A model generated the notes under the pieces. That model had not been told where the DNA came from. It saw nothing but the letters and a program-made list of their open reading frames with translations, and did not search any database. The position numbers and the translations under genes were made by a program. A DNA stretch of 64,000 nucleotides, from positions 15,336 through 79,335 of the forward strand of contig CAYPST010000003.1 of NCBI GenBank assembly GCA_964413425.1. The letters run 5' to 3'. Positions 6,589 through 45,018 of this stretch are shown one piece after another (within the stretch, counting starts at the first letter, position 1; each line of letters opens with the position of its first letter). Origin of the DNA: an uncultured bacterium (lineage in GTDB: Bacteria > Fidelibacterota > JAANXI01).

Positions 6589-6599
6589 ATGAAGCCGGA

Positions 6600-28259: not shown

Positions 28260-28289
28260 CATAATTGAGAGAAGAGAAGAAGAATCATC

Positions 28290-29645
28290 ATGACCAGACG
28301 TGAGTTTCTCCGGCGATCCGCCGGAATATTCATTGCGGCAGTGAGTGCACCGGCAGTAGTGCCGTCAACGATCTTTGGAAAGGCCGGGCAGATCCCCCCA
28401 AGTGAACGGATTGTCATGGGGTGTATCGGTGTTGGGGGCCAGGGCACCTATAACACCAGAGCGTTTCTCAATATCCCGGATGTCCAGGTGGTGGCGGTTT
28501 GTGATGTCGAGCGGGAAAGTGATCTCTATTACGGAGACACCGTTGCAGGCAGAGAGCCGGCCAGACGACTTGTGAATGCGTTTTATTCCAGGAATCGGGG
28601 AGCAGTCAATTACCAGGGGTGCGAGGTGTATACTGATTTTCGGGAGCTGCTGGCCCGGGATGACATTGATGCAGTTACCGTGTGCACTCCTGATCACTGG
28701 CACGGGTTGATTTCAGTCGCGGCGGCGGAAGCCGGTAAGGATATCTACTGCGAGAAACCTCTGACAAACACCATTGCCGAAGGTCGGGCGGTTGTGGATG
28801 CAGCCCGGAAATACGGCCGGATTCTGCAGACCGGCAGCCATGAACGCTCCAATGATAGCGTGCGGTATGCCTGCGAACTGGTTCGGAACGGATACATGGG
28901 CGAACTGCAGCGAATCCGGGTAAATATGCCCAACAGCGATCCCCACCACGACCTGATTCGCCAATCGGACCAGCCGCAGCCGGAAATGCCAATCCCGGAC
29001 GGATTCGATTATAATATGTGGCTGGGGCATACCCCCTGGAAACCTTACACGGAAAAGCGCTGCCATTTCTGGTGGCGGTTCATCCTGGATTACGGCGGTG
29101 GAGAAATGACGGACAGAGGTGCACATATTATCGATCTGGCACAGCTGGGCAACAACACCGACCATACCGGTCCGGTCCGCTTGCGAGCGAGGGGCAGTGC
29201 CCCGGATACCGGGCTTTATGATACGTTCCTCTCGTATGAGTTTGAATGTCAGTATGACAATGGTATTACCCTCCTTGGCAGCAGTCAGCAGCCGAGAGGG
29301 CTGAAATTCGAAGGGACCGACGGCTGGATATTTATCCACATCCACGGTGGACGACTGGAAGCCGAGCCAGCCTCCCTGCTGACGACACAGATCGGTCCCG
29401 GAGAAGTCCACCTGGGGCGCAGTCCCGGACATCATGAAAATTTTATCAATTCGGTAAAAATTAGGAAGCAGCCCGTGGCTCCGGCCGAAGTCGGGCATCA
29501 TACCGCAACCATCTGTCATCTTTTGAATATAGCCATGTTAACCGGTACTGAAGTGCACTGGGATCCCGAAAACGAGCAGATAACAAATAGTCCGGAAGCC
29601 AATAAAATGCTCTCCCGACCCATGCGGAGTCCATGGCATTTGTGA
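28290..29645 (+). CDS. Tat-exported Gfo/Idh/MocA-family oxidoreductase, paralog 4
   Basis: Tat motif MTRREFLRRSAG. GCIGVGGQGT, VVAVCDVE, PDHWH, CEKPL. 451 aa. Confidence 0.8.
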   Translation: MTRREFLRRSAGIFIAAVSAPAVVPSTIFGKAGQIPPSERIVMGCIGVGGQGTYNTRAFLNIPDVQVVAVCDVERESDLYYGDTVAGREPARRLVNAFYSRNRGAVNYQGCEVYTDFRELLARDDIDAVTVCTPDHWHGLISVAAAEAGKDIYCEKPLTNTIAEGRAVVDAARKYGRILQTGSHERSNDSVRYACELVRNGYMGELQRIRVNMPNSDPHHDLIRQSDQPQPEMPIPDGFDYNMWLGHTPWKPYTEKRCHFWWRFILDYGGGEMTDRGAHIIDLAQLGNNTDHTGPVRLRARGSAPDTGLYDTFLSYEFECQYDNGITLLGSSQQPRGLKFEGTDGWIFIHIHGGRLEAEPASLLTTQIGPGEVHLGRSPGHHENFINSVKIRKQPVAPAEVGHHTATICHLLNIAMLTGTEVHWDPENEQITNSPEANKMLSRPMRSPWHL

Positions 29646-29717
29646 GGTATTCGGATAAATGCACCACAAGGTAATCTGTAATTTCGTAAACACAACAAGC
29701 AAGAAAGGATAGGGGTT

Positions 29718-31112
29718 ATGACTGATAAGAATCAATCTCCTTCCAAAGGAAAGCAAGACATGTCCCGTCGGCAGTTTTTAGGGGCATCGGCACTGGCCGC
29801 AGCCGGATTAACGGTTGCGCCTCGACACATACTCGGGGGCGCAGGATACCAGGCTCCCAGTGATACACTGAACATCGCCTGCATCGGTGTGGGTGGCATG
29901 GGAAGAAACAATACCCGGGAACTGGCGGAATTGGGCGAAAATATCTATGCCCTCTGTGATGTGGATTTCGATTATGCCAGCGGGGTATTCGAGCAGTATC
30001 CCCGGGCGAAGAAGTACACGGATTTCCGGAAGATGTTAGAGAATGAACCGGAAATTGATGCCGTGATGGTGGCGACACCGGATAATACCCATGCTGCTAT
30101 CGCCATTACCGCCATGAAAAGGGGGAAGCACGCATTTGTTCAGAAACCACTGACTCGCACAATTTACGAGGCGCGTCGTTTGGCTGAGGTGGCGAAGGAA
30201 GAAGGCGTGGCCACCCAGATGGGGAATCAGGGGCATGGTATGGAAGGTACCTACCTGATACTGGAATGGATTCGCCAGGGAGCCATAGGGGACGTCACCA
30301 AAGTAGATACCTGGACCAACCGTCCCAGAGGATACTGGCCCCAGGGAGCTGACGTCCGTCGGCCGGCAGAAATTCCGGCGGTCCCCTCCACGCTGTCCTG
30401 GGATCTCTGGATCGGGCCGTCTCCGTATAGACCCTATCATCCCGCGTATCATCCCTTTGCATGGCGCGGATGGTGGGATTTCGGTTCCGGAGCACTGGGC
30501 GATATGGGCGCGCATATCATGGATCAGCCATACTGGGCGTTAGAACTCGGTATGCCTGAAACGGTCTATGCCAGTAACACACCGTATAACGATCAGTCCT
30601 TCCCGCTGGGATCCGTAGTTCACTATCAATTCCCGGCAAGAGGGAATAAGCCGCCGGTGAAGTTCACCTGGTACGATGGCGGATTACTGCCCCCGCGTCC
30701 CGACGATCTGGAACAGGGTCGTCAAATGGGCGCCAGCGGCGGCGGCATGATCTTCTATGGGACCGAAGGGAAACTGATGGCCAGCGTCTACGGAAACAAT
30801 CCCCGGCTGATTCCGGAATCGTTCATGCGCGAAGTGGGCCCGCCGAAGAAAACCCTGGAACGCTCACCTGGTATCCATGAGGAATGGGTGAACGAAGCCA
30901 AGGGGGGACCCAAAGCCAAGTCCAACTTCGAATATGCCGCTGCATTGACGGAAACGATGCTGCTGGGTAATGTGGCGATTCAATTCAGCGACACCAATAA
31001 ACGACTGGAATGGGATGCCGAAAATATGCAGGTCGCCAATCATCCGGAAGCAAACGAGTGGTTAGCGCAGGTCCACGATTTTCGTCCTGGCTGGGATGAG
31101 TTGATCGGATAA
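29718..31112 (+). CDS. Tat-exported Gfo/Idh/MocA-family oxidoreductase, paralog 5 (most GH109-like)
   Basis: Tat motif SRRQFLGASALAAAG. ACIGVGGMGRNN, YALCDVD, PDNTHA, VQKPLT. 464 aa. Confidence 0.8.
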   Translation: MTDKNQSPSKGKQDMSRRQFLGASALAAAGLTVAPRHILGGAGYQAPSDTLNIACIGVGGMGRNNTRELAELGENIYALCDVDFDYASGVFEQYPRAKKYTDFRKMLENEPEIDAVMVATPDNTHAAIAITAMKRGKHAFVQKPLTRTIYEARRLAEVAKEEGVATQMGNQGHGMEGTYLILEWIRQGAIGDVTKVDTWTNRPRGYWPQGADVRRPAEIPAVPSTLSWDLWIGPSPYRPYHPAYHPFAWRGWWDFGSGALGDMGAHIMDQPYWALELGMPETVYASNTPYNDQSFPLGSVVHYQFPARGNKPPVKFTWYDGGLLPPRPDDLEQGRQMGASGGGMIFYGTEGKLMASVYGNNPRLIPESFMREVGPPKKTLERSPGIHEEWVNEAKGGPKAKSNFEYAAALTETMLLGNVAIQFSDTNKRLEWDAENMQVANHPEANEWLAQVHDFRPGWDELIG

Positions 31113-31131
31113 GTGATTCTGTCAGAGACAC

Positions 31132-31170
31132 GGGCAGGTGGGTTCCATCTTTGCCTGCCCGTTTTCTGCT
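31132..31170 (+). terminator. intrinsic terminator (GGGCAGG-N15-CCTGCCC followed by GTTTTCTGCT)
   Basis: A 7-bp GC stem plus a U-rich tail lies 20 nt after the stop of the fifth oxidoreductase gene. Confidence 0.5.
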
Positions 31171-31226
31171 AACCAAGTACATTCGAAATCGCTGGACTAC
31201 GCGATAGCGAAAAGGAGAAGATTTCC

Positions 31227-32123
31227 ATGTTGAAAAACGGTATCGGAGTACCCGTGCTGATTCTCCTCTTCCTTACAGCGGTGATGATCGCCAGCTGTAG
31301 GAAGAAGCAGGAAGTTAGTTCGGTACCCTATAATCCGCAAACCGATGTATACAAAGGATGGCGGCTTGGCTGCCAGGCCTACTCATTCAACCGGTTTACC
31401 TTCTATGAAGCGGTGGATAAAACCGCGTCAGTGGGATTGGGATGGATTGAAGCATATCCCGGGCAGACACTGAGTCAGGAGCATCCGGACGTGCAATTCG
31501 GACCGGAGATGTCACCGGACATCCGGGCGGAAGTCAAACAGAAGCTGGCTGATGCCGGAATACAGCTGGTGAACTATGGAGTTACCCAGCTGCCCAATGA
31601 CGAGGCCGAATGCCGGACAGTGTTCGATTTCGCCGAAGATATGGGTATCGAGACCATCGTCTCCGAGCCCCCGGAAGAAGCCTTCGATCTGATCGATCGA
31701 TTGGCTCAGGAATACCAGATCAATGTCGCGATTCACAATCATCCGAGGCCGTCCCATTACTGGAATCCGGAAACAGTTCTGCGGGTGGTGGAAGGCCGGA
31801 GCAAGTATCTTGGTGCCTGCGCCGATACCGGCCACTGGATGCGGTCGGGTATCAATCCGCTGGAAGCCCTGCAGATGCTGGAAGGACGTATCATCTCTCT
31901 GCACTTCAAAGATCTGAACGAATTCGGAGTCCGGGAGGCCCATGACGTGCCCTGGGGCACCGGACAAGCAAATGTTGAAGCACTGCTCAAAGAGCTGGAT
32001 CGCCAGAACTTCCGGGGCGTCTTTTCTATTGAGTACGAACATAACTGGGAAAATTCGGTCCCGGACATCCAAAAATGTGTGGAGTATTTTAATGAAGTGG
32101 CGGGTGAATTAAGTGAGGTATAA
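31227..32123 (+). CDS. sugar phosphate isomerase/epimerase (xylose-isomerase-like TIM barrel) with lipoprotein-type signal peptide
   Basis: Signal peptide ending MIASC. Metal-binding TIM-barrel motifs typical of the AP endonuclease 2 / xylose-isomerase-like fold (IETIVSEP, AIHNHP, CADTGHW, LHFKD, IEYEHNWE). Confidence 0.75.
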   Translation: MLKNGIGVPVLILLFLTAVMIASCRKKQEVSSVPYNPQTDVYKGWRLGCQAYSFNRFTFYEAVDKTASVGLGWIEAYPGQTLSQEHPDVQFGPEMSPDIRAEVKQKLADAGIQLVNYGVTQLPNDEAECRTVFDFAEDMGIETIVSEPPEEAFDLIDRLAQEYQINVAIHNHPRPSHYWNPETVLRVVEGRSKYLGACADTGHWMRSGINPLEALQMLEGRIISLHFKDLNEFGVREAHDVPWGTGQANVEALLKELDRQNFRGVFSIEYEHNWENSVPDIQKCVEYFNEVAGELSEV

Positions 32124-32136
32124 AACAAGACCCAAA

Positions 32137-32166
32137 TTGAGCGATTTATTTCCATAAATCGCTCAA
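32137..32166 (+). terminator. strong hairpin (13-bp perfect stem ttgagcgatttat / ataaatcgctcaa, loop ttcc) just after the stop of 31227-32123
   Basis: Perfect inverted repeat 14 nt downstream of the stop. No U-tract follows, so it is either a U-less terminator or a structural repeat. Confidence 0.4.
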
Positions 32167-32237
32167 TCGACAAAGAAAATGTAAGTTTTCACCTCACCCA
32201 TTCGGTGAAAACAAACATTTTCTCAGTCGGGGTTATA

Positions 32238-32283
32238 CCTAAGTACAGCGATACTTCGCTGCACTCGTATCGCTCAACTTAGG
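32238..32283. repeat. imperfect-palindrome repeat element (family B), copy 1: cctaagtacagcgatacttcgctg / cactcgtatcgctcaacttagg
   Basis: The reverse complement is identical over both 22-nt arms to 46532-46599, where a 22-nt insert separates the arms. The arms are imperfect inverted repeats of each other (REP-like). Confidence 0.55.
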
Positions 32284-32332
32284 CAAGAATTATTTTCATG
32301 TATAGGGATGTTTGAATATTATCCCAGTAGTT

Positions 32333-32369
32333 AAAAAAAGGGGGGCTATATCGAGCCTCCCTTTTCTCT
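32333..32369. terminator. bidirectional intrinsic terminator (A7-GGGGGGC-loop-GCCUCCC-UUUUCUCUG)
   Basis: A-tract, 7-bp GC stem (one G.U pair), 8-nt loop and a U-rich tail. It lies about 210 nt from the nearest annotated gene end. Confidence 0.5.
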
Positions 32370-32534
32370 GCTGATAGAGGAGTTTATTAGGAAATTGGAA
32401 AACAGTTTTTGGGCAGTAAAATCAGGAACCTTAACACAGGTTGTTCAGTAAGGAATTGGACTTTCAACTGATATCTGCAGATACTCAGCAGATAAGTGAG
32501 TAGCATTAGCGATGGGAAGACATGTATATTTCTT

Positions 32535-32692
32535 GAGTCTATTTAAGAAAACGCTTCGCCCCGAAGGGATGCCTTCGGCAAAGAGGTCCCGTGACAACGG
32601 GACAAAGAAACTAGAACATATCCCTTGCCAAACCCTCGCAATACATGTTGAAGATGTGTTCTCTATAGAATAAAAATATATGGCTATTCAGC
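32535..32692. mobile_element. MITE-like element, copy 3 (reverse orientation, one end degenerate)
   Basis: gagtctatttaagaaaacgcttcgccccgaagggatgccttcggcaaagaggtcccgtgacaacgggacaaag... matches the reverse complement of 46886 back to about 46700, with point differences and without copy 2's internal duplication. The far TIR (ttctaaacactc) is not recognisable. Confidence 0.45.
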
Positions 32693-33389
32693 TTACTCAG
32701 TATTTGTGGAGATCAAGAGTTCCTGGAGACGCTCTGACCGAATGACCCCCTCTGGCTCCCCCTTAGTAAGGGGGAGAACGAGGAAAATGGGGTCAGGCCC
32801 GAAGGGCCCCCTATGGGGCAGCATTGAGGTAGGTGTTCATCTCCTGAGCCAAGTTAATAGTCATATTCATTAAAACTGAATTATCGAGGTAAATAACAGG
32901 AGTAAGTCATAATAGAACTAGTAGTTAGATTAATTAAAAAGGATTCTCTTAAGATAACTTCAGTACAGGATCGAGAAACTCCCGGGGAGTGTTCCTATGA
33001 AGCGTTAAGGAGTGAGTCTAGCCAGAGTGCTCAGCAGGCCGGATGTATCCACAAAGCCCTGATGCGCTGATTTTGGCCCCCAGGGGCTAGATATTTCTAG
33101 CAATGAGTCCCTCTCCCCCCTTCCGCGCCGGAGGAGCAGTACTGAGTTAAGCTGATAGTAAAATATGCATAATTAATATGATTAATCAGGAAAAAACATT
33201 GCTTTCATTAACAAACTACGTTATACTTATAGCAACATATGTATTTGACATCGCTTAGAACCTGACCCATAGATAAGAACTGTTTACTTTTGTTGTTCAT
33301 GTCGGTTTACTTTAAGCTTGGTTAGCAGAGGATAGGAAGCAGTATTTTGAGGCACTGTAATAAGGGGTTAAGAGAAAAGATATGGCGAT

Positions 33390-33425
33390 GCACACGTTTG
33401 CGAATACGTTTTCGCAAACGTGTGC
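33390..33425. promoter_or_regulatory. 36-bp near-perfect palindrome GCACACGTTTGCGAATAC|GTTTTCGCAAACGTGTGC (candidate operator or stable hairpin)
   Basis: 35 of 36 positions are self-complementary. It lies about 170 nt upstream of the TonB-dependent receptor start at 33598. Confidence 0.45.
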
Positions 33426-33597
33426 AAATGGCATCATCGTTAATATAATTTGTTTAAGGAATCGCAGATCGTTTCTGGGCAAGGCAGCATAATTAAAAGG
33501 CGTTTCGAAGGCTCTTCACTAGGTGGCTGATATGTCTGAATTTTTATTAAAGAATTGAATCACCATTAATATAATATAAACAGAAAGGAGAATTACC

Positions 33598-36500
33598 ATG
33601 CAGCGAACGTTACCATGGGATAGCCTGATCACAGGTATACTCGTGTGTTTGTTGATACCCTTTACCATCTTATTTGGCCAAACTAGTGGAAAGATTGCCG
33701 GTACAGTTACGGATGCTGAAACCGGTGAGCCTCTGCCAGGAGTTAATGTTATCCTAGAAGGGACTCAGCAGGGTGCAGCCACAGACCAAGAGGGATTCTA
33801 TACGATTCTGAATGTAACACCCGGTAGTTACTCAGTGACTGCATCTATGATTGGATATCAGGAAGTTACAAAGACCGGTGTTGAAGTGACTATAGACCAT
33901 ACCTCAACCATTGATTTTGAACTCCAAACAGCTGCCATCGCCGGAGAGGCGATTACTGTGGAAGCAGAGCGGGAAGTCGTAAAACTGGATATGTCTTCAA
34001 GCAGTGTAAGCACCACTCCGGACGAAATTGAAGGGACGCCAACTGTCACCAATGTGGGAGAGATGATTAACCTTCAGGCAGGAATTGATGGCATGTCCGT
34101 CCGCGGAGGTAGTGCGGATGAGACTGCTTTCATGTTGGACGGATTGATGGTGGTCGATAACCGGGCCAGCGAACCACTCTCCAACCTGGTGAATTTGAGT
34201 GCGGTACAGAGTTTGGAAGTCATTAAAGGTGGATTTAATGCAGAATACGGGAATGTACGATCAGGGGTGATCACCGTTGTGACCAAGGATGGCCGACCAG
34301 AGCGATATAGTGGTTCGCTCGAATTGCGTTACAGTCCGCCCCGCTTGAAACATTCCGGTCCGTCGGTTTTCAATTGGCAAAATTATTATTTACGGCCGTA
34401 TCTCGATCCCGATGTGAGGATGGATGGGACGAAAAGCGGTGCCTGGGATGAAGAGATGCGTGGGCAATATCCGGAATTCGAAGGATGGAAGGCGGTATCT
34501 GACCGAACACTGGCTGATGATTCCGATGCGAATGATCAGACACCAGAAGAAGCCATGCAATGGTTCATGTGGCAGCATCGGGCAGAAGGAAGCGCTGAAC
34601 TTGGACAGAAAGAAGCCAACTATGGCAAGATTCCGGATTATTTGGCTGATGTCAGTCTTGGTGGACCGGTTCCCTTCGCGAGTTCCTACTTGGGAGATTT
34701 GACCTTCTTTCTCTCACATAAATCGGATAACAGTGCCTTTGCTTTACCAGTGGTTCGTGATTATTATCACGAGAACAATACCCAGTTGAAACTGACAACT
34801 CGTCCCACCGATAATCTGAGGGTAACGGCTCAGGGAATCTATGGGATAATTAATTCGGTCGCCTCTCATGTCCGGGGTGCAGCCTGGAGCATGAATGATT
34901 ATCTGAGAAGCGGCGACGACTTCTATAACCCGGATACGGAAAGTCATAGCCTCTATTGGCCGGGTGGATGGAATCCCTTTGACGCCTATCGTTCTGTGGG
35001 AGGACTGAATATTGAACATACTTTAAGTTCCAGAACGTTCTATGAAGCGAATATCTCCTACACTCACACCCAGAATGATATGGATGGGCCGCAGAAGATT
35101 CGGGATACCACTCCCATTCGCTATTTTGGCAGCGTTCCTGCGGATGAACAGCCCTATGGTTGGATCTGGGCGACCGGGGAACCGGGAAGAAAGCGGAAAA
35201 CGATTGATGGATTCGGCATTGCAGATGAAGGTGCTGAGCCGCGAGACACCTCGTATGCCAGTACAGTGAACGCCTCGTTCGATATTACCAGTCAGGTACA
35301 TAGGAATCATATGGTGAAAGGTGGTATCGTATTCAATTACGATGAATTTCATGTATTTCGTGGCAGTCATCGTCCCAGAAGTTCAACAGAAGATACGAAA
35401 ATCATCTGGCATCAGTATCCCATCCGCCTGGGAGCTTACATTCAGGACAAATTTGAATTCGAAGGAATGATAGCAAATATAGGAGTGCGGCTGGACTATA
35501 ATGATCCCAAGACTGAATGGTATACCGTTGATCAATATTCGAAATATTTTACTGCCAAATATGAAGATCAGTTGACCACTGAAGCACCGACCGAGCCAGC
35601 GGAAGCCCATTTGCGGATCAGTCCCCGAGTGGGTATTTCTCACCCGGTCAGCGCGAACAGTAAATTCTATTTCAATTACGGCCACTTTTATTCCATGGTT
35701 CCCGCACAGCAGATGTTTGAAATTAATTACGGCAATGTGCCCTCAGGTGTGCAGTTCATTGGGAATCCGTCTGCTGATCCGGCTCGGACCGTCGCTTATG
35801 AACTGGGGGCGGAATACAGTCTGTTGAATCAATTTTTACTCCATGCATCCGGATATTACAAAAATGTGACCGGTGAGGCTGCCAGTGTTGGTTATACCGA
35901 TTTTACCGGGAGCGTTGATTACAACACGATTGAAAATAATGAATATTCGGATGTTAGGGGTTTCGAGTTCAAGATCGAAAAGCGATATGGCTGGATAACC
36001 GGCTGGCTGAATTATGACTACCGGGTCCGGACCCAGGGATATGTCGGTCGTCAGCACTATTTCGAAGATATCCGGCAGATGCGGACTTACGGTTTGCAGA
36101 ATCCTTATCAGGAACGACCACTCGCTCGTCCGGTGGCTCGTGCGCAATTACGATTCAGATCCCCGCAGGATTTTGGCCCCAGCTATGGCGGGTTTAGGCC
36201 ACTGGGCGGCTGGTCGTTATCCTTCCTGTATACCCATCAGGCAGGCCATTATGAAACCTGGGATCCCTTAACTACTTATGAGTTACAGGATAATATTCAG
36301 TGGGCCGATTACAATCGAGTGGATGCGAAAATCTCCTATGATGTTCTCGGCAGCAGCAGCCGAAGTATCAGGCTCTATCTGGATATCACCAATGTGTTCG
36401 ATATCAAGAACCTGACCACCATGGCCTTTTCTGACGCGAATGATCGCCGGGCCTATCTGGAATCCTTACACTTACCAATGTACGAAGGAAAAAAATATCA

Positions 36501-36642
36501 GGATGCAGGATATACTGCGGGGAGTGACGAGCCGGGGGATCTCAGCAGCGAAGATAAACCCTATATTAACGATCCGAACCGCCGGTTCCTCTACTATACA
36601 GATCCACGGTATGTGACATTCGGATTACGAGTGAATTTCTAG
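33598..36642 (+). CDS. TonB-dependent outer-membrane receptor with N-terminal carboxypeptidase-regulatory-like domain (SusC/RagA-like architecture)
   Basis: Signal peptide, then a CarbopepD_reg-like domain (GKIAGTVTDAETGEPLPGVNVILEG...GFYTI), a plug region, a long beta-barrel and a C-terminal aromatic residue (...GLRVNF). 1014 aa. RBS AAAGGAG. Confidence 0.85.
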   Translation: MQRTLPWDSLITGILVCLLIPFTILFGQTSGKIAGTVTDAETGEPLPGVNVILEGTQQGAATDQEGFYTILNVTPGSYSVTASMIGYQEVTKTGVEVTIDHTSTIDFELQTAAIAGEAITVEAEREVVKLDMSSSSVSTTPDEIEGTPTVTNVGEMINLQAGIDGMSVRGGSADETAFMLDGLMVVDNRASEPLSNLVNLSAVQSLEVIKGGFNAEYGNVRSGVITVVTKDGRPERYSGSLELRYSPPRLKHSGPSVFNWQNYYLRPYLDPDVRMDGTKSGAWDEEMRGQYPEFEGWKAVSDRTLADDSDANDQTPEEAMQWFMWQHRAEGSAELGQKEANYGKIPDYLADVSLGGPVPFASSYLGDLTFFLSHKSDNSAFALPVVRDYYHENNTQLKLTTRPTDNLRVTAQGIYGIINSVASHVRGAAWSMNDYLRSGDDFYNPDTESHSLYWPGGWNPFDAYRSVGGLNIEHTLSSRTFYEANISYTHTQNDMDGPQKIRDTTPIRYFGSVPADEQPYGWIWATGEPGRKRKTIDGFGIADEGAEPRDTSYASTVNASFDITSQVHRNHMVKGGIVFNYDEFHVFRGSHRPRSSTEDTKIIWHQYPIRLGAYIQDKFEFEGMIANIGVRLDYNDPKTEWYTVDQYSKYFTAKYEDQLTTEAPTEPAEAHLRISPRVGISHPVSANSKFYFNYGHFYSMVPAQQMFEINYGNVPSGVQFIGNPSADPARTVAYELGAEYSLLNQFLLHASGYYKNVTGEAASVGYTDFTGSVDYNTIENNEYSDVRGFEFKIEKRYGWITGWLNYDYRVRTQGYVGRQHYFEDIRQMRTYGLQNPYQERPLARPVARAQLRFRSPQDFGPSYGGFRPLGGWSLSFLYTHQAGHYETWDPLTTYELQDNIQWADYNRVDAKISYDVLGSSSRSIRLYLDITNVFDIKNLTTMAFSDANDRRAYLESLHLPMYEGKKYQDAGYTAGSDEPGDLSSEDKPYINDPNRRFLYYTDPRYVTFGLRVNF

Positions 36643-36715
36643 CGGCAGATAAAAGATAAGGACTGATAAAAAAAAAGACTGTCGGTACTGAAGTTATATA
36701 CAAGGAGAAGACGAA

Positions 36716-38854
36716 ATGAATCGACATAAGCTAATAATAAGTGTTGTATTGCTGGCCACTACCGTGTTGTGGGGGGCTGCCTTGGATGCCGGCAACACAA
36801 GACAGATGCGGGTTGGAAATATTCAGGATGCGGTTGACGCTGCGTTCTCTCAAACATTCCAGCATGATCCACACGCGTTTTACTATTTTGACGCATTTAG
36901 TCAATGGAACATAAATAGACGTGCCACCCATATCCTTGCCAGAGATTGGGTGGCTCCGGATGGTACGGAACTGTTGGTGAAAAAAACGTCGAATGCCATG
37001 TATTCGGATGAAACAGCCATCACAATGCCAGTCCCGGATGAAAATGACATCGATATACGTAAGTATTATCGCGACAAACCTCCGGAAATCTATGTGGATG
37101 GGATTCAGCTGCACCGGGAGTTCCCCTTGGATGGCGAGCACCTTGCGCCGGAAAAAATTCCTGGGACAGCGGATCGGATGATTGAATCGACTATTAACAC
37201 GGATATGGGATTAACTCTCACTAAAAGAGTGTTGGCATGGAGTCAGAAAAATCATGATGATTATTTGATCTATGATATTACGTTCACCAATACCGGCAAT
37301 GTGGACTTGGATGACGAAATCGAACTGCCGGATCAAACTCTTAAAGATGTATATGTGGCTCGAATGTCGGTAGACGGTTGGTACGGAACCTGGCCCAAAT
37401 GGCATGGTTACTATGGTCAGTATCCCGATGATTCCTTACGTATAGGCTATTCTTATCACAACTGGGTGACCGGTGATACCTGGGGAAGTGTAGGCACCGA
37501 ATACGATCGATACGGGAATCCTCACCGGGAGATTGGCTTTATTCAGGATCCGGAATGGGTTGGCGAAGCCCTCTTGCATGTCGACAAATCCACTACTGAT
37601 AATACCGATAATTGGGACAATCAACCTTGGGTCACCGGCATATTCTCTGCAGAAGATCCCATTTTTAAACAGGCGCAACCGATCACTCCGGAGAGGTTGT
37701 ATGGGATTATGAAGAATGGTTTTTCGCAGGATGATGGTTCACCAGAGCTTACGGGAACCAAGCCGGGACACCATAAAGTGCCCATGGAACTGATGGACAT
37801 CACTTATGGCTATGAAATTGATATGCCATATGACGAACCCGGAAATACATATGTTGTGGGGCCTTATACGGTGGGTCCAGGTGAGTCCTTCCGGATTGTG
37901 TTTGCCACAGTAATCGGTTCTATTTCTCCCCGGGTTGCCTGGGATGTTGGGAAGGATTGGCTGAATGGAACAGCGAGCTGGGATGGTCCGGATAAACTGC
38001 CGCCGCCGGCTGAGGATATTTATGCTGACCGGCCAGAATTTACAGAGAATGATATTGCTAAGGATCAATGGGTATCCACTGGCAAAGACTCTCTCTTTCG
38101 GAATGCGTCTGCGGCACAATGGGCAGTGCAGCACGATTACAATGTTCCTGTCCCTCCACCTGCTCCGTCGATAGAAGTACAGTCACTTCCGGATCGCATT
38201 CAAATCTCTTGGGGTGATGAATCAGAAGCAGCTTCGGATTTTGCGGGTTACCGAGTTTATCGAGCACTCGGGAATCCTGATCCGATTGTGCGCGAAAATA
38301 GACTGATTGGCGAATGGGAAATGATTTTCGAATGCGGAGAAGGAACAGAAAATGATCTGGCGTACACCTATGGTGACGACGAAGCCCAACGAGGAGAAGA
38401 ATACTATTACTATGTTGCGGCATTTGATAATGGAGTTGATAATGCCCCAGGCGTTTTCGGTAAAAAAGAACAGCTTGAAAGCGGTCGCTACATGAACATG
38501 ACGCAACGTGCAGCGTCTCTTACAAGACCTCCGGGTGATGAGTTGAGTGATATTCGGGTGGTACCGAATCCCTTTAATGTCAATGCCAGCGCGGTGCAGT
38601 TCCAGGGTGCACCAAACAAGATCGTTTTTATGGAATTGCCGCCGGAATGTACCATTTCCGTCTATACTGAAAGTGGTGATCTGGTAAAGGTGTTGGAACA
38701 TACCGATGGCTCTGGGGACGAACCATGGGGAGAAAACTGGCAGACATTTCAGGTATCCGAGACCGGACAGGTCGTTGTGAGCGGATTGTATATCGCACAT
38801 ATTGAAACTCCTGACGGCCGCAGCAAGAATGTCAAATTCGTCATTGTGCGGTGA
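36716..38854 (+). CDS. secreted protein of unknown function with C-terminal T9SS (Por) sorting domain; takes the place of a SusD partner
   Basis: Sec signal peptide. C-terminal roughly 90 aa fit the T9SS CTD pattern (VVPNPFN...TISVYTESGDLVKVL...SGLYIAHIET...VKFVIVR). An internal FN3-like segment (YRVYRALGNP...YYYYVAAFD). No SusD/TPR signature. Confidence 0.6.
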   Translation: MNRHKLIISVVLLATTVLWGAALDAGNTRQMRVGNIQDAVDAAFSQTFQHDPHAFYYFDAFSQWNINRRATHILARDWVAPDGTELLVKKTSNAMYSDETAITMPVPDENDIDIRKYYRDKPPEIYVDGIQLHREFPLDGEHLAPEKIPGTADRMIESTINTDMGLTLTKRVLAWSQKNHDDYLIYDITFTNTGNVDLDDEIELPDQTLKDVYVARMSVDGWYGTWPKWHGYYGQYPDDSLRIGYSYHNWVTGDTWGSVGTEYDRYGNPHREIGFIQDPEWVGEALLHVDKSTTDNTDNWDNQPWVTGIFSAEDPIFKQAQPITPERLYGIMKNGFSQDDGSPELTGTKPGHHKVPMELMDITYGYEIDMPYDEPGNTYVVGPYTVGPGESFRIVFATVIGSISPRVAWDVGKDWLNGTASWDGPDKLPPPAEDIYADRPEFTENDIAKDQWVSTGKDSLFRNASAAQWAVQHDYNVPVPPPAPSIEVQSLPDRIQISWGDESEAASDFAGYRVYRALGNPDPIVRENRLIGEWEMIFECGEGTENDLAYTYGDDEAQRGEEYYYYVAAFDNGVDNAPGVFGKKEQLESGRYMNMTQRAASLTRPPGDELSDIRVVPNPFNVNASAVQFQGAPNKIVFMELPPECTISVYTESGDLVKVLEHTDGSGDEPWGENWQTFQVSETGQVVVSGLYIAHIETPDGRSKNVKFVIVR

Positions 38855-38906
38855 TAAAAGGACACACTGATTCTGAGAATAGTAGACAGTATTTGAAAAT
38901 ATAAAT

Positions 38907-39914
38907 TTGGAGACTATGATGAAGAAAATAACTCAGCGATTGATTGTCATCTGCCTGATAGGGCTCCTGGGATTCCGAATGGGTGAAGCGAAGACAATTA
39001 AGAAAGTTGCCCAGACCGGTTTGCAGTTTTTGAAGGTGGATATGGTCTCCCGGGCGGCCGGAATGGGTGGGGCGTTTACTATGGCCGGACAGGGGACAGA
39101 GGCAATATTCTATAATCCGGCATCTGTTTCGGAAATGCAGAACGATATTGAATTCTTTGCAACCCGGGTGAATTGGATTGCAGATATTGCCTATAATGCG
39201 GCCGCTGTTGCCAAAGATTTAGGGAATGCAGGCGCACTCGGGCTCCATATCATCAGCAGCGATTATGGGGAGGTGTATGGTACTCGTGTAGCCTCCACCG
39301 AGAAAGGCTATATCAATACCGGGGAGGTGAATGTTAATGGATATGCCGCGGGCCTCTCCTATTCCCGGACCTTAACCAATAAGTTCCGGGTTGGCGGAAC
39401 AGTGAAATATGCCGAACAACACCTGGGAGCTAATATTCATGAGGTTGATGGACCCGAAATCGAAAATAAAGTATCGGGACTGGCTTATGATTTCGGAACC
39501 ATATTCTATCCTGGGTTAAAAAGCCTCCGGTTGGGGATCAGCTTCCGGAATTTTTCCCCGCAGTTTAAATATGAAGAAACCGCATTCGAATTGCCCCTGA
39601 CATTTCGTCTTGGCATCGCTGCTGATGTCCTTGACTTTATTGGAGGGTTTGAACAACACTCCCTGCTGGTGGATGTTGACGCACTTCACCCTCGTGATTA
39701 CACAGAGCGAGTACATGTGGGTGCAGAATATCTTTATAATAACTTGCTAGCTCTCCGTGCTGGATATAAGACCAATTACGATGAAGAATCACTAAGTCTG
39801 GGGTTTGGTCTCAATTATGATATAGGTGGAATCGGTCTCCGGGTTGATTATGCTTATTCACCGATGAATGTGTTTAATAATGTCCAGCGAATTACAATCG
39901 GTGGATCATTTTGA
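38907..39914 (+). CDS. outer-membrane beta-barrel protein with FadL/PorV-type N-terminal motif (possibly T9SS-associated, PorP/SprF-sized)
   Basis: Signal peptide. AGMGGAFTMAGQGTEAIFYNPASVS resembles the FadL/PorV N-terminal GRAFAG...DDAS.FYNPA motif. Alternating beta-strand pattern, and the C-terminal residue is F. 335 aa. Lies directly downstream of a T9SS cargo gene. Confidence 0.5.
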   Translation: METMMKKITQRLIVICLIGLLGFRMGEAKTIKKVAQTGLQFLKVDMVSRAAGMGGAFTMAGQGTEAIFYNPASVSEMQNDIEFFATRVNWIADIAYNAAAVAKDLGNAGALGLHIISSDYGEVYGTRVASTEKGYINTGEVNVNGYAAGLSYSRTLTNKFRVGGTVKYAEQHLGANIHEVDGPEIENKVSGLAYDFGTIFYPGLKSLRLGISFRNFSPQFKYEETAFELPLTFRLGIAADVLDFIGGFEQHSLLVDVDALHPRDYTERVHVGAEYLYNNLLALRAGYKTNYDEESLSLGFGLNYDIGGIGLRVDYAYSPMNVFNNVQRITIGGSF

Positions 39915-40135: not shown

Positions 40136-41533
40136 ATGAAATTATTTTCAATACGTATGGTGTTGCTGACTTTACTTTTAGTAGGAGTTGTGTTTGCTAT
40201 ATCACCGGTTGGCACGGCAAAGGCAGCAGATTTTCGCACAGAAACCGATCAAGAGCGCCGGGAACGAATGGAGTGGTGGCGGGAAGCGCGGTTCGGCATG
40301 TTCATTCACTGGGGACTTTATTCCCTGCCGGCCCGGCATGAATGGGTGAAAATGCGGGAGCGGATGACCAATGATGAATATCGGAAGTATTTTGAGTTAT
40401 TCAACCCGGATCTGTATAACCCGAAGGAATGGGCAAAAGCTGCGAAGATGGCCGGAATGAAATATGTAGTGATCACGTCTAAACACCATGAAGGGTTCTG
40501 TCTCTGGGATTCGGATTATACGGAGTATAAGGCAACCAATACCCCGTATGGAAAAGATTTGCTGAAACCGTTTGTCAAAGCGTTTCGTGAGGAGGGTTTG
40601 CGCGTTGGATTCTATTACTCCCTCATCGATTGGCACCATCCCGAATTTCCTATCGACCGGATTCATCCCTTGCGGGATAACGAAGAAATGCGCAAGACGA
40701 ACAAAGATCGGGACATGGAAGAATATGCGGAGTATCTGCATAATCAGGTGCGCGAATTAATGACCGAGTTCGGTCAGATTGACCACTTCTTCCCGGATTT
40801 TTCCTATCCCGGCCCGGACGGGAAAGGGGCCGAAGACTGGCACTCGGAGGAACTCCTGGAAATGGTCCGGGAACTGCAGCCGCAGGTGATCATAAATGAC
40901 CGGCTCGATTTGCTGGATCATCGCTGGGGCTGGGATTTTCGTACTCCGGAACAGTTCATGCCCCGGGAGTGGGTGACCATGGACGGTGAACGGGTGCCCT
41001 GGGAGACCTGCCAGACCTTTTCCGGTTCCTGGGGCTATCACCGGGACGAAAAAACCTGGAAAAGCGACCGGCAGCTGATCACGATGCTCATCGAAACTGT
41101 GAGTAAGGGTGGCAATTTACTGCTGAATGTCGGGCCGACTGCCCGGGGGACTTTCGATTATCGTTCCATGGAGAAATTACGCGCAATCGGAGAGTGGATG
41201 GATTTAAACAGCCGTTCCATCTATAATTGTACCGCAGCGCCGGAAGAATTCAAAAGTCCGGACAACTGCCTGTTGACCTTTAATCCCGAGAAGAACCGGA
41301 TCTATGTTCATGTACTGGAGTGGCCCATGGGTCAGCTGCATCTGGACGGATTCGGTGGCAAAGTAAAATATGCACAGTTACTGCATGATGCCTCGGAGAT
41401 ACAGTTTGAAGGCTCCCGGGGTGCCTGGATGTCAGGAGAGGGAGCCGGAGGCGAAGAGACGTTAAACCTGAACTTACCTATCGTGAAACCGGAGGTGGAG
41501 GTGCCGGTGATTGAACTCTTTTTAACCGAGTAG
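40136..41533 (+). CDS. alpha-L-fucosidase, GH29
   Basis: WWREARFGMFIHWGLYS ... KYVVITSKHHEGFCLWDS (catalytic nucleophile region) ... GGNLLLNVGP. Signal peptide. 465 aa. Confidence 0.85.
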   Translation: MKLFSIRMVLLTLLLVGVVFAISPVGTAKAADFRTETDQERRERMEWWREARFGMFIHWGLYSLPARHEWVKMRERMTNDEYRKYFELFNPDLYNPKEWAKAAKMAGMKYVVITSKHHEGFCLWDSDYTEYKATNTPYGKDLLKPFVKAFREEGLRVGFYYSLIDWHHPEFPIDRIHPLRDNEEMRKTNKDRDMEEYAEYLHNQVRELMTEFGQIDHFFPDFSYPGPDGKGAEDWHSEELLEMVRELQPQVIINDRLDLLDHRWGWDFRTPEQFMPREWVTMDGERVPWETCQTFSGSWGYHRDEKTWKSDRQLITMLIETVSKGGNLLLNVGPTARGTFDYRSMEKLRAIGEWMDLNSRSIYNCTAAPEEFKSPDNCLLTFNPEKNRIYVHVLEWPMGQLHLDGFGGKVKYAQLLHDASEIQFEGSRGAWMSGEGAGGEETLNLNLPIVKPEVEVPVIELFLTE

Positions 41534-41692
41534 TTACATCCACAGGCGGGAGTTGTCCGGAATCAATAGTCCGGAAGGATTGCCGGATGTATAAAAGCAA
41601 TTCAGAACATATGTATCCGCCCAGGGATGCAGACAGGGTTTCAGAGAATGGTTAACCCAATCTGAAGTGAACATCGAAGAGCGAGGCTTACC

Positions 41693-43081
41693 ATGACAAT
41701 GAACAGACGAAAATTTTTGGGAACAATGGCAGGATCTGCAGCAGGCTTCACCATATTGGGGTGCTCATCCGGAGGTCATTCCAATAAAAGTGTCAGCGGT
41801 TTACCGGCGGCTCAGCAGCGGAGGGCCATGCAGGAATGGTTTCAGGATGCGAAATTCGGGATGTTCATTCACTGGGGTGTGTATAGTGTGCTGGGCAGAG
41901 GAGAGTGGGTGATGCACAACGAAGAGATGACGGTGGATGAATACGAACAGCTGCCGTCACAGTTTAATCCCACCGGATACGATCCTGCTGAGTGGGTGGG
42001 CCTGGCGAAGGAAGCGGGGATGGAATATATGACCATCACCTCCAAGCATCATGACGGCTTTGCCATGTGGGATTCGGAGGCCAGCGATTATGATATCGTG
42101 GATCGAACCCCGTACGGAAAGGACGTGTTGAAAATGCTGGCCGATGAATGCCAGCGGCAAGGCGTAAAACTGTTCTTCTACCATTCTCACCTTGACTGGC
42201 ATCACCCCGACTATTACCCCCGGGGCCGAACCGGTCAGCATTCAAACCGGCCGGATGAAGGGGACTTCGACAGCTATCTGGAGTATATGAATACCCAGAT
42301 TCATGAGCTGGCTGACGGACGGTATGGTCAATTGGGCGGCTTCTGGTTTGACGGCTGGTGGGATCAGCGGATACGGGAGGAGGATGTGCCCGATAAAGCC
42401 TGCCATGTGAACTGGCAACTGCAGGAGACGTATGATTTAATCCAGCAGCTGCAGCCCCAGGCCCTCATTGGGAACAATCACCATGTTGCGCCCTTCCCGG
42501 GCGAAGGGTTCCAGATGTTTGAAAAAGACCTTCCGGGGCAGAATACCACTGGTTTCAGCGGAGATGCGGTCATCGGTCGTTTACCGCTGGAAACCTGTGA
42601 TACCATCAACCGTTCCTGGGGATATAATAAGAATGATACCAATTTTAAAAGCACACCGGAACTCATTGGCTATCTGGTGCGGGCAGCGGGACACAACGCG
42701 AATTTCCTATTGAATGTCGGGCCGACACCCCGGGGCACTATTCAGCCGGAATTTGTGGATCGCCTGCGCGACATCGGAGCCTGGATGTCCACGTACGCTC
42801 AAACGATCAAGGGCACCAGGGGCGGGCCCATGCCACCGCAGGATTGGGGCGTCACTACTCAAAAGGAATGGAAGATATTTGTGCATATCCTAGATCCAGA
42901 CTCCCCGGAACAATTGCCTATATTCAATACTTCGGATATCATTCTGGACGGCGCCCATTTGTATGGAAGTGATACCCCTGTAAATATTGCCCGTGATGCA
43001 GATTTAAATGTAGTAATTAATCTTCAGCACGTGCAGCGGAATCCGGTGGACACCATTGTGGTTCTGGAATTAACGAGTTAA
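41693..43081 (+). CDS. alpha-L-fucosidase, GH29 (Tat/lipoprotein signal)
   Basis: NRRKFLGTMAGSAAGFTILGCSSG signal. WFQDAKFGMFIHWGVYSV ... TITSKHHDGFAMWDS ... NFLLNVGP. 462 aa. Confidence 0.85.
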   Translation: MTMNRRKFLGTMAGSAAGFTILGCSSGGHSNKSVSGLPAAQQRRAMQEWFQDAKFGMFIHWGVYSVLGRGEWVMHNEEMTVDEYEQLPSQFNPTGYDPAEWVGLAKEAGMEYMTITSKHHDGFAMWDSEASDYDIVDRTPYGKDVLKMLADECQRQGVKLFFYHSHLDWHHPDYYPRGRTGQHSNRPDEGDFDSYLEYMNTQIHELADGRYGQLGGFWFDGWWDQRIREEDVPDKACHVNWQLQETYDLIQQLQPQALIGNNHHVAPFPGEGFQMFEKDLPGQNTTGFSGDAVIGRLPLETCDTINRSWGYNKNDTNFKSTPELIGYLVRAAGHNANFLLNVGPTPRGTIQPEFVDRLRDIGAWMSTYAQTIKGTRGGPMPPQDWGVTTQKEWKIFVHILDPDSPEQLPIFNTSDIILDGAHLYGSDTPVNIARDADLNVVINLQHVQRNPVDTIVVLELTS

Positions 43082-43377
43082 AGAGCAAAAAAGAACGTTG
43101 TTTGAGGAACAGAAGAAGAGGAATGGAAAAAGCCTGGATGTTCCCAACATGGGCAGTTACGGCCGAATGGATCTATTCCCACTTGAAGAAATCTGCGCTC
43201 TGATACGTTATTTGTAGCTCCAGACTTTCATTGGCATCAACTGGGAGCCGAAAGTGATCAAGATTATAGTGCATCGGAGCGTACGCATAGAGCACAAATC
43301 TAGACAACAATAAGGCCGAAAGAGGTCCGGGGAAATTCTGTTAACAACAAAATGATAAAAAAAGGAAGGAATATACA

Positions 43378-44853
43378 GTGATGCAATTAAGAAGCATTCT
43401 GGTAGCTCTTATATGCGCGTGGATGATACTCTATACACTGCAGGGAACAGTCAGTCCGGTTTATGGGCAGGAGGATGCAGAGAGACATTTCGAACCCACC
43501 ATCAGATCCCTCAGCAGCCATGAGCTCCCGGCATGGTATGACGATGCCAAACTGGGCATCTTTATCCATTGGGGGATCTACTCCGTCCCCGCCTGGGCCC
43601 CTACCACCGGAGAGCTGGGGTCGGTGGAGCGGGAACGATGGTTCAAGTATAACCCGTACGCCGAGTGGTATCTGAATTCCCTGCGCATCCCCGGATCGCC
43701 CACCCAGGAACACCATTATCAAACCTACGGCAGTGACTTCAATTATTATGACTTTGCCGAGACCTTAAACCAAGAGGTGCAGCAGTGGGATCCAGATGAA
43801 ATGGCCGGCCTGTTCCAGGATGTGCATGCCCGCTACGTCGTCCTGACGTCCAAACATCATGACGGATTCGTGCTCTGGCCCAGTAATTTCAGGAATCCGT
43901 ATCTCCCGTTCGACAAACAGCGGGCTACCAGGGATATCGTGGGAGAACTGACGGCGGCGGTCAGGGAGCAAGGCATGCGTATGGGACTATACTACAGCGG
44001 TGGCATCGACTGGAGCTTTCATCCGGTGGTTATCACCGGCAATCTGGACTGGAGCAAGATCACCCCCCGGAGTGATGAGTATAGAAGTTACGCCCGGAAC
44101 CACTGGGAAGAACTTATCGAGAAGTACCGGCCCGCTATTCTCTGGAATGATATCGCCTATCCTGACCGACAGGACGCCATGGAAATAATCGCCGACTATT
44201 ATAATGAGTATTCTAATGGCGTCATTAACAATCGGTGGAGTCTGTCCTTCCAGGACTTTACCACACCGGAATACGCCCAGTACGACCGATTGACTCCTCA
44301 GAAGTGGGAAGCGACTCGCGGAATCGCCTATTCATTCGGGTACAACCAGAATTCCGGTCCCGAGCAGATGCTCTCCGTGGATGAGCTGGTTGATATGTTC
44401 GTGGATATCGTCAGCAAGAACGGGAATCTGCTCCTGAATGTGGGCCCCAAACCCGACGGCACCATCCCCGAACTGCAGGTAGAGCGCCTCCGGAGACTCG
44501 GCCGCTGGCTGGATGTGAACGGGGAGGCCATCTTCGAGACTCGTCCCTGGGTGGTTGCGGAAGGTGCCCTGGTGAACGATGACGCCGAGATCCGATTCAC
44601 CCATAAACCCGGCGTGTTGTACGCCATTCTGCTGGACAGCCCGGACGAATATTCTATCGCTCTCAGAAATCTGGAGCTGGAGGAAGGAACTGCCGTGACG
44701 TTGCTTGGGCATAGCGAAGCGCTCCAATGGCGGCAGGAAGGTAACATGGTACGTATTAATCTGCCTAAAAAATTACCGGATAATCCGGCATATACCATCA
44801 AAATCACACCTGAACCCTGGCGGTTGATTCGGAAAGGTGAGACTGCAAATTGA
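43378..44853 (+). CDS. alpha-L-fucosidase, GH29
   Basis: WYDDAKLGIFIHWGIYSVPAW ... VVLTSKHHDGFVLWPS ... GNLLLNVGPKPDG. Signal peptide. 491 aa. Confidence 0.8.
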   Translation: MMQLRSILVALICAWMILYTLQGTVSPVYGQEDAERHFEPTIRSLSSHELPAWYDDAKLGIFIHWGIYSVPAWAPTTGELGSVERERWFKYNPYAEWYLNSLRIPGSPTQEHHYQTYGSDFNYYDFAETLNQEVQQWDPDEMAGLFQDVHARYVVLTSKHHDGFVLWPSNFRNPYLPFDKQRATRDIVGELTAAVREQGMRMGLYYSGGIDWSFHPVVITGNLDWSKITPRSDEYRSYARNHWEELIEKYRPAILWNDIAYPDRQDAMEIIADYYNEYSNGVINNRWSLSFQDFTTPEYAQYDRLTPQKWEATRGIAYSFGYNQNSGPEQMLSVDELVDMFVDIVSKNGNLLLNVGPKPDGTIPELQVERLRRLGRWLDVNGEAIFETRPWVVAEGALVNDDAEIRFTHKPGVLYAILLDSPDEYSIALRNLELEEGTAVTLLGHSEALQWRQEGNMVRINLPKKLPDNPAYTIKITPEPWRLIRKGETAN

Positions 44854-45018
44854 GATTTCTCCATATTTATTTTTGGTTTTGGGTGAAAATTAATCTAATT
44901 AGAGTTAAAACTATCTATAGGGCAATTTAACTCGTTACTTTTTTAACAGGAATTTAATAAACTAACAATCTAATATACAGGAGAAGACTTCTTTGGATTT
45001 TAAATAATTTAGCATTGA

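Follow-up and report, generated by a model that had tools for sequence, protein, structure and literature searches.

A conserved three-gene cassette that probably replaces SusC/SusD for sugar capture in uncultured relatives of Bacteroidota

Analysis of a 64-kb stretch of DNA from an uncultured bacterium (contig CAYPST010000003.1; this whole stretch is termed the window, and all coordinates refer to it) identified three adjacent genes encoding a TonB-dependent transporter, a 712-aa secreted protein whose C-terminal domain (CTD) is related to those of type IX secretion system (T9SS) cargo, and an outer-membrane beta-barrel of the PorV/PorQ family. This three-gene cassette is conserved in hundreds of uncultured relatives of Bacteroidota, in which it probably replaces the SusC/SusD pair for sugar capture. 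An initial annotation, made from the nucleotide sequence alone, had read these genes as a non-canonical polysaccharide-utilisation unit in which a T9SS-sorted protein and a barrel take the place of a SusD lipoprotein; family assignments, CTD homology and synteny support this interpretation, each element of which held with refinements, and allow it to be extended. The three open reading frames (ORFs) that it had located were verified in place:

33598-36642, + strand: TonB-dependent transporter of 1014 aa, with signal peptide, N-terminal extension, plug, large divergent barrel and C-terminal Phe
36716-38854, + strand: secreted protein of 712 aa, with the tail VVPNPFN...KFVIVR
38916-39914, + strand: PorV/PorQ-family outer-membrane beta-barrel, 332 aa from ATG 38916, with signal peptide and C-terminal Phe

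Spacers of 73 bp and 61 bp separate the transporter gene from the 712-aa gene and the 712-aa gene from the barrel gene, respectively. The mechanically called barrel ORF opens at TTG 38907 (335 aa); a later ATG, at 38916 or 38919, is the likelier start, because a 331-aa database protein identical to the barrel (P0241) begins at 38919.

A metagenome scan with an alignment of the 712-aa family recovered 80 loci, or 77 after removal of duplicates, and gene order was counted over the non-redundant loci with enough flanking sequence. The transporter gene lies directly upstream of the 712-aa gene in 51 of 51 loci and a PorV-like gene directly downstream in 55 of 56, with the trio on the same strand and its junctions short or overlapping. 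These loci were drawn from metagenomes of many different samples and span 35-87 % protein identity; the sole match in a scan of genome contigs was an 87 %-identical relative on a contig of 4.9 kb. Several distinct cassettes, each with its own PorV-like gene, were also found in one metagenome, and locus L052 carries a tandem pair in which the first cassette possesses its own PorV-like gene and the second is cut by the end of the locus. At greater depth, a word-indexed search returned 346 homologues of the 712-aa protein, all annotated as hypothetical, and an exhaustive profile search identified 523 clusters (50 % identity) at E ≤ 1e-30 and 2792 at E ≤ 1e-10; with 523 clusters at the stricter threshold, the family is both large and old. 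Its named sources are metagenome-assembled genomes (MAGs) assigned to Calditrichota/Calditrichaeota, Neomarinimicrobiota, Kryptoniota and candidate division KSB1, together with some bins that are evidently mislabelled. Such conservation bears on the possibility that the three genes are chance or merely operonic neighbours, encoding independent outer-membrane proteins that are co-transcribed with a fucose regulon and do not interact physically. The evidence for an interaction is all comparative, as this explanation would have it, but retention of the gene order over so wide a range of identities and samples and beside unrelated downstream genes, within a family of this size and age, renders it very improbable, and we strongly disfavour it. 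The cooperation with the transporter that the initial annotation had suggested is supported by the same synteny, together with the correlated divergence described below.

The central member of the cassette reaches the threshold of no model in Pfam (2025 copy) or NCBIfam (2026 copy). An AlphaFold2 (AF2) model built from 50 sequences (predicted local distance difference test, pLDDT, 88.7; predicted template-modelling score, pTM, 0.86) is mostly beta, its helices being confined to residues 405-472, and the following parts were delineated:

36716-36790, + strand: Sec (SPI) signal peptide, MNRHKLIISVVLLATTVLWGAALDA cleaved before G (ALDA/G), without a lipobox Cys
36791-38149, + strand: N-terminal domain (N-domain) of ~450 aa, mostly beta-sandwich, with a helical insert at residues 405-472
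38150-38455, + strand: fibronectin type III (FN3) domain, residues ~479-580, a spacer between N-domain and CTD, recognised by profile, Foldseek and AF2
38549-38851, + strand: C-terminal beta-sandwich domain, residues ~612-712, reading PNPFN ... SGLYIA ... KFVIVR, with two family-specific inserts

A conserved linker joins the FN3 and C-terminal beta domains in the model. Both statements made earlier about this gene, that it encodes a 712-aa signal-peptide protein and that it is not a SusD-like lipoprotein, were borne out. The signal peptide is of Sec type, and a lipobox-like string occurs in two of 116 full-length homologues, in neither of them at the cleavage site; furthermore, none of 50 family members matches the SusD families of Pfam (PF07980, PF12741, PF12771 and PF14322) at E ≤ 1. 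A diverged SusD was accordingly rejected on the Pfam result, the beta-rich model and the missing lipobox. Within the N-domain, for which pLDDT is mostly above 90, numerous acidic and aromatic residues are invariant, and residues 166-208, with the motif NTGNVDLDDEIELP, resemble DUF11/DUF7507 surface-protein sandwiches. Foldseek comparison with the PDB matched the C-terminal half to FN3 tandems (probability 1.0) and to PorZ (5m11), and the N-domain to the N-terminal regions of glycoside hydrolase (GH) family GH94/GH65 phosphorylases and a GH2, at TM-scores (TM) of 0.2-0.25 and a root-mean-square deviation of ~13 Å. A profile of the whole protein retrieved FN3 alone from the PDB (3mpc, Fn3-like, E 0.013). 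As modelled, the N-domain has no close solved relative; we propose that it is a ligand-capture module facing the transporter, for which binding and cleavage are both possible.

Closer inspection of the CTD placed it near the CTDs of two components of the Porphyromonas gingivalis attachment complex. The best hidden Markov model (HMM) matches of the family CTD are the CTDs of PorZ and PorU: 21 of 50 homologues match the last ~95 positions of the PorZ model (best E 1.4e-9) and eight match the C-terminal part of the PorU model. TIGR04183 is matched weakly at E ≤ 1 by 34 of the 50 (best E 2.4e-5), and the type B model CHU_C by a single member (E 0.044). When aligned by hhalign with the canonical T9SS CTDs of 24 distinct proteins encoded near related cassettes, the family CTD gave a probability of 95.9 % (E 5.5e-9, 80 columns), with the PNPFN, SG-Y and K-x-x-x-x motifs in register; relative to the canonical domains it carries ~11 additional residues after PNPFN and a GSGD insert. 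Based on these family-level matches, the hhalign result and the shared motifs, the domain appears to be a divergent subclass of the T9SS type A CTD. PNP and SGxY are invariant within the family, a terminal Arg is found in 112/116 homologues and a Lys at position -6 in 110/116. By analogy, this Lys is a candidate equivalent of a strongly conserved Lys close to the end of type A CTDs, the one conserved PorV contact in substrate-translocon complexes (PMC10994853). Searched against all ORFs of 87 loci and the window, the family CTD HMM retrieved the family itself and three other proteins, always at the C-terminus; two of the three were scanned, and Pfam calls both Por_Secre_tail/FlgD_ig. A CTD profile matched one T9SS substrate CTD in the PDB, 8glk_D, at a non-significant E of 7.7, and its database search returned mostly short fragments and no informative architectures.

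A related arrangement was observed in locus L058, where a complete cassette is followed directly (3988-10506) by a second, divergent transporter, scoring 224 bits to that of the window, and then by a protein of 1154 aa whose resemblance to the 712-aa family (41 bits) is limited to FN3 and CTD. The N-terminal 1000 residues of this protein have no Pfam match, and the contig ends before a possible barrel gene. FN3 and CTD together may therefore represent a portable module.

The third protein of the cassette scores 195.2 bits against the PorV/PorQ family model NF033709 (cut-off 90), which also matches 44 of 44 aligned homologues, and NCBI names its relatives 'PorV/PorQ family protein'. Since it falls below the equivalog cut-offs of both PorV (NF033710, 72.5 vs 250 bits) and PorQ (NF033711, 72.8 vs 220 bits), the barrel constitutes a distinct PorV/PorQ subfamily. 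Its sole sequence match in the PDB is Flavobacterium johnsoniae PorV (E 2e-9), and structures of PorV were also the top Foldseek matches of its AF2 model (pLDDT 84), namely 8gl6_F (E 1.4e-14, TM 0.68) and 6h3i_F (TM 0.70). The initial annotation had described a FadL/PorV-like barrel of the size of PorP/SprF proteins, and of these affinities the one with PorV/PorQ is the best supported. FadL was rejected as an assignment, with FadL/OMPP1/TodX (PF03349) reaching 16.5 bits against a cut-off of 29.7 and Foldseek a TM of ~0.55, which reflects only the general fold held in common. For PorP/SprF the match is marginal in PF11751 (23.9 vs 22.3 bits), and TIGR03519 is matched by four of 44 homologues at E ≤ 1e-5; NF033709 scores far higher, and assignment to PorV/PorQ was preferred. 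Three database proteins, P0241, P0250 and P0361, correspond to the identical PorV-like protein mentioned above, a 64 %-identical paralogue and a member of the 712-aa cluster; they suggest a second, unconfirmed cassette on the source contig beyond the 64-kb window.

Two N-terminal domains were recognised in the transporter:

33694-33927, + strand: carboxypeptidase-regulatory-like extension, residues 33-110 (PF13620, CarboxypepD_reg, E 6e-22)
33997-34257, + strand: plug, residues 134-220 (PF07715, E 3e-7)

A putative TonB box, EAITVEA, lies between them. An N-terminal extension of the carboxypeptidase-regulatory type is typical of SusC-type transporters, and its presence on this receptor had been recognised correctly from the outset. 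The TIGR04056 (SusC/RagA) model nevertheless scores 65.2 bits against a cut-off of 368.25, its match being limited to the N-terminal 400 residues. Searched against the PDB, a family profile of 38 orthologues matched part of the PhuR barrel, plugs (FepA, PqqU and YncD) and N-terminal-extension domains, among them, weakly, that of a 'SusC homolog' solved in isolation (9hfj, E 2e-4), and found no full-length SusC or RagA. Membership of SusC/RagA was rejected on both counts, and these same results indicate that the protein represents a distinct family of large TonB-dependent transporters whose extension is of the SusC kind.

The cassette thus resembles SusC/SusD (RagA/RagB) systems in pairing a ~1000-aa transporter bearing this extension with a downstream gene for a large secreted partner, in the location of that pair amid glycoside hydrolase, regulator and sugar catabolism genes, in the occurrence of several paralogous copies, and in the proposed capture of glycans at the surface for import. 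It differs in that the transporter lies outside the SusC family, and in that the partner is a beta-rich non-lipoprotein composed of N-domain, FN3 and CTD, whereas SusD is an alpha-helical tetratricopeptide-repeat protein. Furthermore, the cassette has an obligatory third gene, that of the PorV/PorQ barrel, and the MAGs that harbour it are labelled as KSB1, Calditrichota, Neomarinimicrobiota and Kryptoniota, all outside Bacteroidota. A review of the T9SS describes CTD proteins as restricted to Bacteroidota (PMC10202324).

Taking the three components together, we favour with moderate confidence a model in which a T9SS-exported protein, held at its cognate barrel by an uncleaved CTD, supplies the transporter with substrate. 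The 712-aa protein would be exported to the periplasm by Sec and would cross the outer membrane through a T9SS that recognises its CTD. Unlike that of ordinary type A cargo, this CTD would escape cleavage and stay on the extracellular loops of the PorV/PorQ-like barrel encoded by the adjacent gene, as PorZ stays on PorQ and PorU on PorV, such docking providing a tether to the cell surface without a lipid anchor. With FN3 serving as spacer, the N-domain may sit over or beside the transporter, where it would capture, and possibly trim, the substrate and pass it on, a role corresponding to that of SusD and of surface glycan-binding lipoproteins in Bacteroidota. The trio would form one outer-membrane nutrient-capture module. 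For the window, the likely substrate would be a fucosylated oligosaccharide, to be degraded by periplasmic GH29 and GH95 enzymes before the fucose is catabolised.

Precedents exist for several of these steps. PorZ and PorU are the two T9SS proteins known for CTD retention (PMC5562754; PMC10202324), being cargo held 1:1 at the surface by PorQ and PorV, respectively (PMC5562754). Similarly, type B cargo leaves the translocon on cognate PorP/SprF-like barrels that are encoded adjacently and anchor it (PMC10994853, PMC10202324), and it has been proposed in review that cognate PorV-like barrels shield the CTD from cleavage (PMC10202324). Compared with the PorZ-PorQ and PorU-PorV pairs of the P. gingivalis attachment complex, the cassette shares a type-A-like CTD cargo whose CTD most resembles theirs, a PorV-family barrel scoring about equally against the PorQ and PorV models, and, as proposed, a 1:1 holding at the surface. 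Conversely, the cassette barrel falls short of both equivalogs, and the cargo lacks the beta-propeller of PorZ and the sortase domain of PorU. The cassette pair also shares its operon with a TonB-dependent transporter, occurs in many copies beside catabolic genes, and would therefore be an accessory of nutrient uptake rather than of the secretion machinery.

Systems with type B CTD cargo and PorP/SprF (SprB/SprF; PG1035/PorP) offer a second comparison, in that the cargo gene is clustered with a dedicated FadL/PorV-like barrel gene; their CTD is thought to remain uncleaved while the barrel anchors the cargo at the surface (PMC10202324, PMC10994853). They differ from the cassette in that its CTD aligns with type A rather than type B and its barrel is best assigned to PorV/PorQ rather than PorP/SprF, and in that known type B cases involve no transporter. 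A third comparison is with BamG-BamH of the BAM complex, where the loops of a FadL/PorV-like barrel hold a surface protein beside another large beta-barrel machine (PMC12578637), much as we propose for the cassette. In that system, however, the protein held, BamH, is a lipoprotein, BamA serves as the partner barrel, and only the barrel fold is shared with the cassette (9hiv_F, TM 0.50).

Homology of the CTD to type A domains, which are normally cleaved (PMC10994853, PMC10202324), could instead indicate ordinary T9SS cargo, whose CTD is removed by a PorU-type sortase and which is then released or linked to lipopolysaccharide, with the barrel acting only as a transient, substrate-specific shuttle. 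The weak likeness of the N-domain to parts of carbohydrate-active enzymes and its many invariant acidic residues would also suit a cargo of this kind. Examination of 46 complete triads nevertheless revealed that the CTD is the most conserved part of the 712-aa protein, unlike typical CTDs, with a mean pairwise identity of 57 %, compared with 52.5 % for FN3, 49 % for the linker and 43.5 % for the N-domain. That the CTD and the linker preceding it are more conserved than the rest of the protein is unexpected for a disposable signal, and the contact surface of type A CTDs has been described as poorly conserved (PMC10994853). Moreover, every cassette with an available downstream flank, except L059, has its own PorV paralogue, for which a general shuttle would have no need, and the nearest HMM similarity of the domain is to the uncleaved CTDs of PorZ and PorU. 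We consequently regard cleavage and release as unlikely, and prefer retention of the CTD on the barrel.

Several observations weigh against retention and docking as set out above. TIGR04183 scores 13.5 bits on the CTD of the window protein (cut-off 23), and none of the 50 family members scanned reaches the threshold of Pfam Por_Secre_tail (PF18962), so that the T9SS CTD of the initial annotation fails the direct model test and stands through homology, that is, the family-level TIGR04183, PorZ and PorU matches and the hhalign alignment. Foldseek against the PDB recognised no ligand-binding fold in the N-domain, its best matches being weak (best TM ~0.25); an enzymatic role is therefore equally open. 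One locus, L059, has no PorV-like gene downstream and lies near a contig end. Correlations between pairwise-identity matrices of the 46 triads were strongest for N-domain and transporter (r = 0.90) and for CTD and barrel (r = 0.87), with other pairs at 0.81-0.84, a pattern that fits the proposed contacts; all values are high (0.81-0.90), as expected for co-inherited genes, and differences between pairs are therefore suggestive only. Lastly, no T9SS core gene (sprA/sov, porK/L/M/N) lies within the 64-kb window, the part of the genome that was covered.

This last point would also accord with a two-partner module operating independently of any T9SS, in which the barrel or the transporter exports or inserts the neighbouring protein, or in which that protein is periplasmic and bound to the periplasmic face, its T9SS likeness being a matter of ancestry. 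Consistent with such a module, the CTD forms a distinct subclass with inserts, which an HMM built from the canonical CTDs of neighbouring proteins misses at E ≤ 1e-3, and FadL/PorV-like barrels are used outside the T9SS, as illustrated by the BAM complex of Bacteroidota, in which BamG holds BamH, a lipoprotein at the surface (PMC12578637). However, proteins with canonical T9SS CTDs are often encoded right beside the cassettes, with 24 distinct examples within 8 kb of related ones; the host organisms therefore have T9SS cargo and almost certainly a T9SS. To our knowledge, an occluded FadL/PorV-like barrel of ~14 strands is not known to translocate folded proteins of 70 kDa. Taken together, these considerations make a T9SS-independent module improbable, and export by the T9SS with docking on the cognate barrel remains our preferred reading.

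Gene neighbourhoods differ among the related loci. The trios of three distant homologues adjoin GH20, GH109 and galactokinase genes, a tagatose-type cluster, and GH63-like and GH2 genes, respectively. A census of flanks (88 ORFs) identified enzymes and regulators comprising LacI, GFO/IDH/MocA, 3-keto-disaccharide hydrolases, xylose-isomerase-like TIM barrels, GH95, GH109 and GH63-like proteins, along with SGL/SSL-type propellers and canonical Por_Secre_tail proteins. Because different sugar genes adjoin the cassette in different loci, it appears to be a generic uptake module, mobile within the genome and tied to carbohydrate catabolism, rather than peculiar to the fucose locus. A wider context was seen in L025 and, similarly, in L024, L026-L028 and L037-L041, whose cassettes are mostly ~43 % identical to the window protein: upstream lies a gene for a ~410-aa protein combining TIG with a strictosidine-synthase-like/SMP-30 propeller (3555-4796 in L025), and downstream a ~370-aa canonical Por_Secre_tail CTD protein followed by LacI (11164-13418). 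This arrangement hints at a unit of five to six genes.

The window itself places the cassette 221 bp ahead of the first of several GH29 genes. Pfam scans of window ORFs ≥200 aa, among which no SusD-like gene was found in the 64 kb, identified the following:

40136-62252, + strand: fucoside utilisation block, co-directional with the cassette
Starts at 40136, 41693, 43378, 46916, 50655, 53467, 55138 and 56643, + strand: eight GH29 alpha-L-fucosidases
45019-46083, + strand: LacI regulator
48683-50503, + strand: L-fucose isomerase
52129-53391, + strand: MFS permease
58192-59682, + strand: FGGY kinase
59769-62252, + strand: GH95

The eight GH29 genes and one GH95 gene are exactly those announced by the initial annotation. 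A DeoR regulator lies downstream of the fucose genes, after GH95. Each glycosidase of the window has a Sec, twin-arginine translocation (TAT) or lipoprotein signal, and none of them carries a C-terminal sorting domain. Among the GH29 paralogues (40136-58097), GH29_2 and GH29_4 have TAT-like RRKFLG motifs and GH29_2 and GH29_8 a lipobox-like Cys, the remainder appearing to be of Sec type; the GH29 at 46916-48079 is short (387 aa) and without a C-terminal domain. Two long intergenic gaps interrupt the fucosidase cluster, at 46084-46915 (832 bp) and 48080-48682 (603 bp). The window encodes no sulfatases, an absence that speaks against sulfated fucoidan as substrate.

Upstream of the cassette, positions 23731-32123 encode five tandem GFO/IDH/MocA oxidoreductases with TAT-type signal peptides, after which comes a lipoprotein-like TIM barrel of xylose-isomerase type (AP_endonuc_2). 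Both families recur near related cassettes, as do 3-keto-disaccharide hydrolases, and the array and its relatives may constitute a periplasmic oxidative (3-keto-glycoside) route of glycan breakdown. Preceding the array are an FG-GAP/ASPIC-UnbV repeat protein and a 522-aa TAT-signal protein without a recognisable domain (18004-19812 and 21707-23275). Also identified, at 8251-13238, was an unusual concentration of HDOD domains, with three HDOD proteins (one with EAL) flanking a PAS hybrid histidine kinase/response regulator.

The 1.47 kb that separate the transporter gene from the xylose-isomerase-like gene (32124-33597) contain no ORF ≥60 aa. Most of this stretch falls in a 2-kb composition window (32001-34000) with a G+C of 0.42; inverted repeats occur at 32136-32167, 32168-32229 and 32749-32783, Rfam and tRNA scans of the whole window, this stretch included, gave no match, and a scan for promoters and terminators gave signal at or below chance. 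One further element was noted:

33389-33426, no strand assigned: near-perfect palindrome of 38 nt, TGCACACGTTTGCGAATAC followed by GTTTTCGCAAACGTGTGCA, ~170 bp 5' of the transporter start

Its core, TGCGAATACGTTTTCGCA, has the shape of a LacI-family operator. The palindrome occurs once in the window, where its core is expected by chance 0.21 times (≤2 mismatches), and it is absent from related loci and not conserved. From its shape, we consider it a candidate operator to which the LacI protein encoded at 45019-46083 might bind.

A full-text literature search found no earlier description of the three-gene cassette. It is possible, if somewhat short of probable, that the cassette constitutes a third, previously undescribed architecture for TonB-dependent glycan import, in which the place of SusD is taken, in candidate phyla related to Bacteroidota, by an unannotated family of at least 500 clusters (50 % identity), surface display being achieved by permanent, non-covalent docking of a retained CTD on a dedicated PorV paralogue, which would join the transporter in a stable complex of three components. 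SusC/SusD pairs are the defining feature of polysaccharide utilisation loci (PULs), serve as a marker for glycan use in metagenomes and are largely confined to Bacteroidota. PUL prediction based on SusD would miss the cassette, as neither Pfam nor NCBIfam has a family for its middle protein; if our reading is correct, the three genes could serve as a marker for substrate-uptake loci in uncultured groups of the KSB1, Calditrichota and Neomarinimicrobiota type. With their many well-conserved pairs of CTD and cognate barrel, the cassettes also form a large natural collection in which to study how CTDs are recognised by PorV-like proteins, and are relevant to outer-membrane glycan import and the T9SS as well as to PUL prediction in uncultured phyla related to Bacteroidota. 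Were the model to hold, CTD sorting of the T9SS type would be in use outside Bacteroidota, and a transporter lid or binding protein could be exposed at the surface by a route independent of lipid. Parts of the T9SS would then be structural subunits of nutrient importers, extending the role of PorV-family barrels and retained CTDs from secretion machinery to nutrient acquisition.

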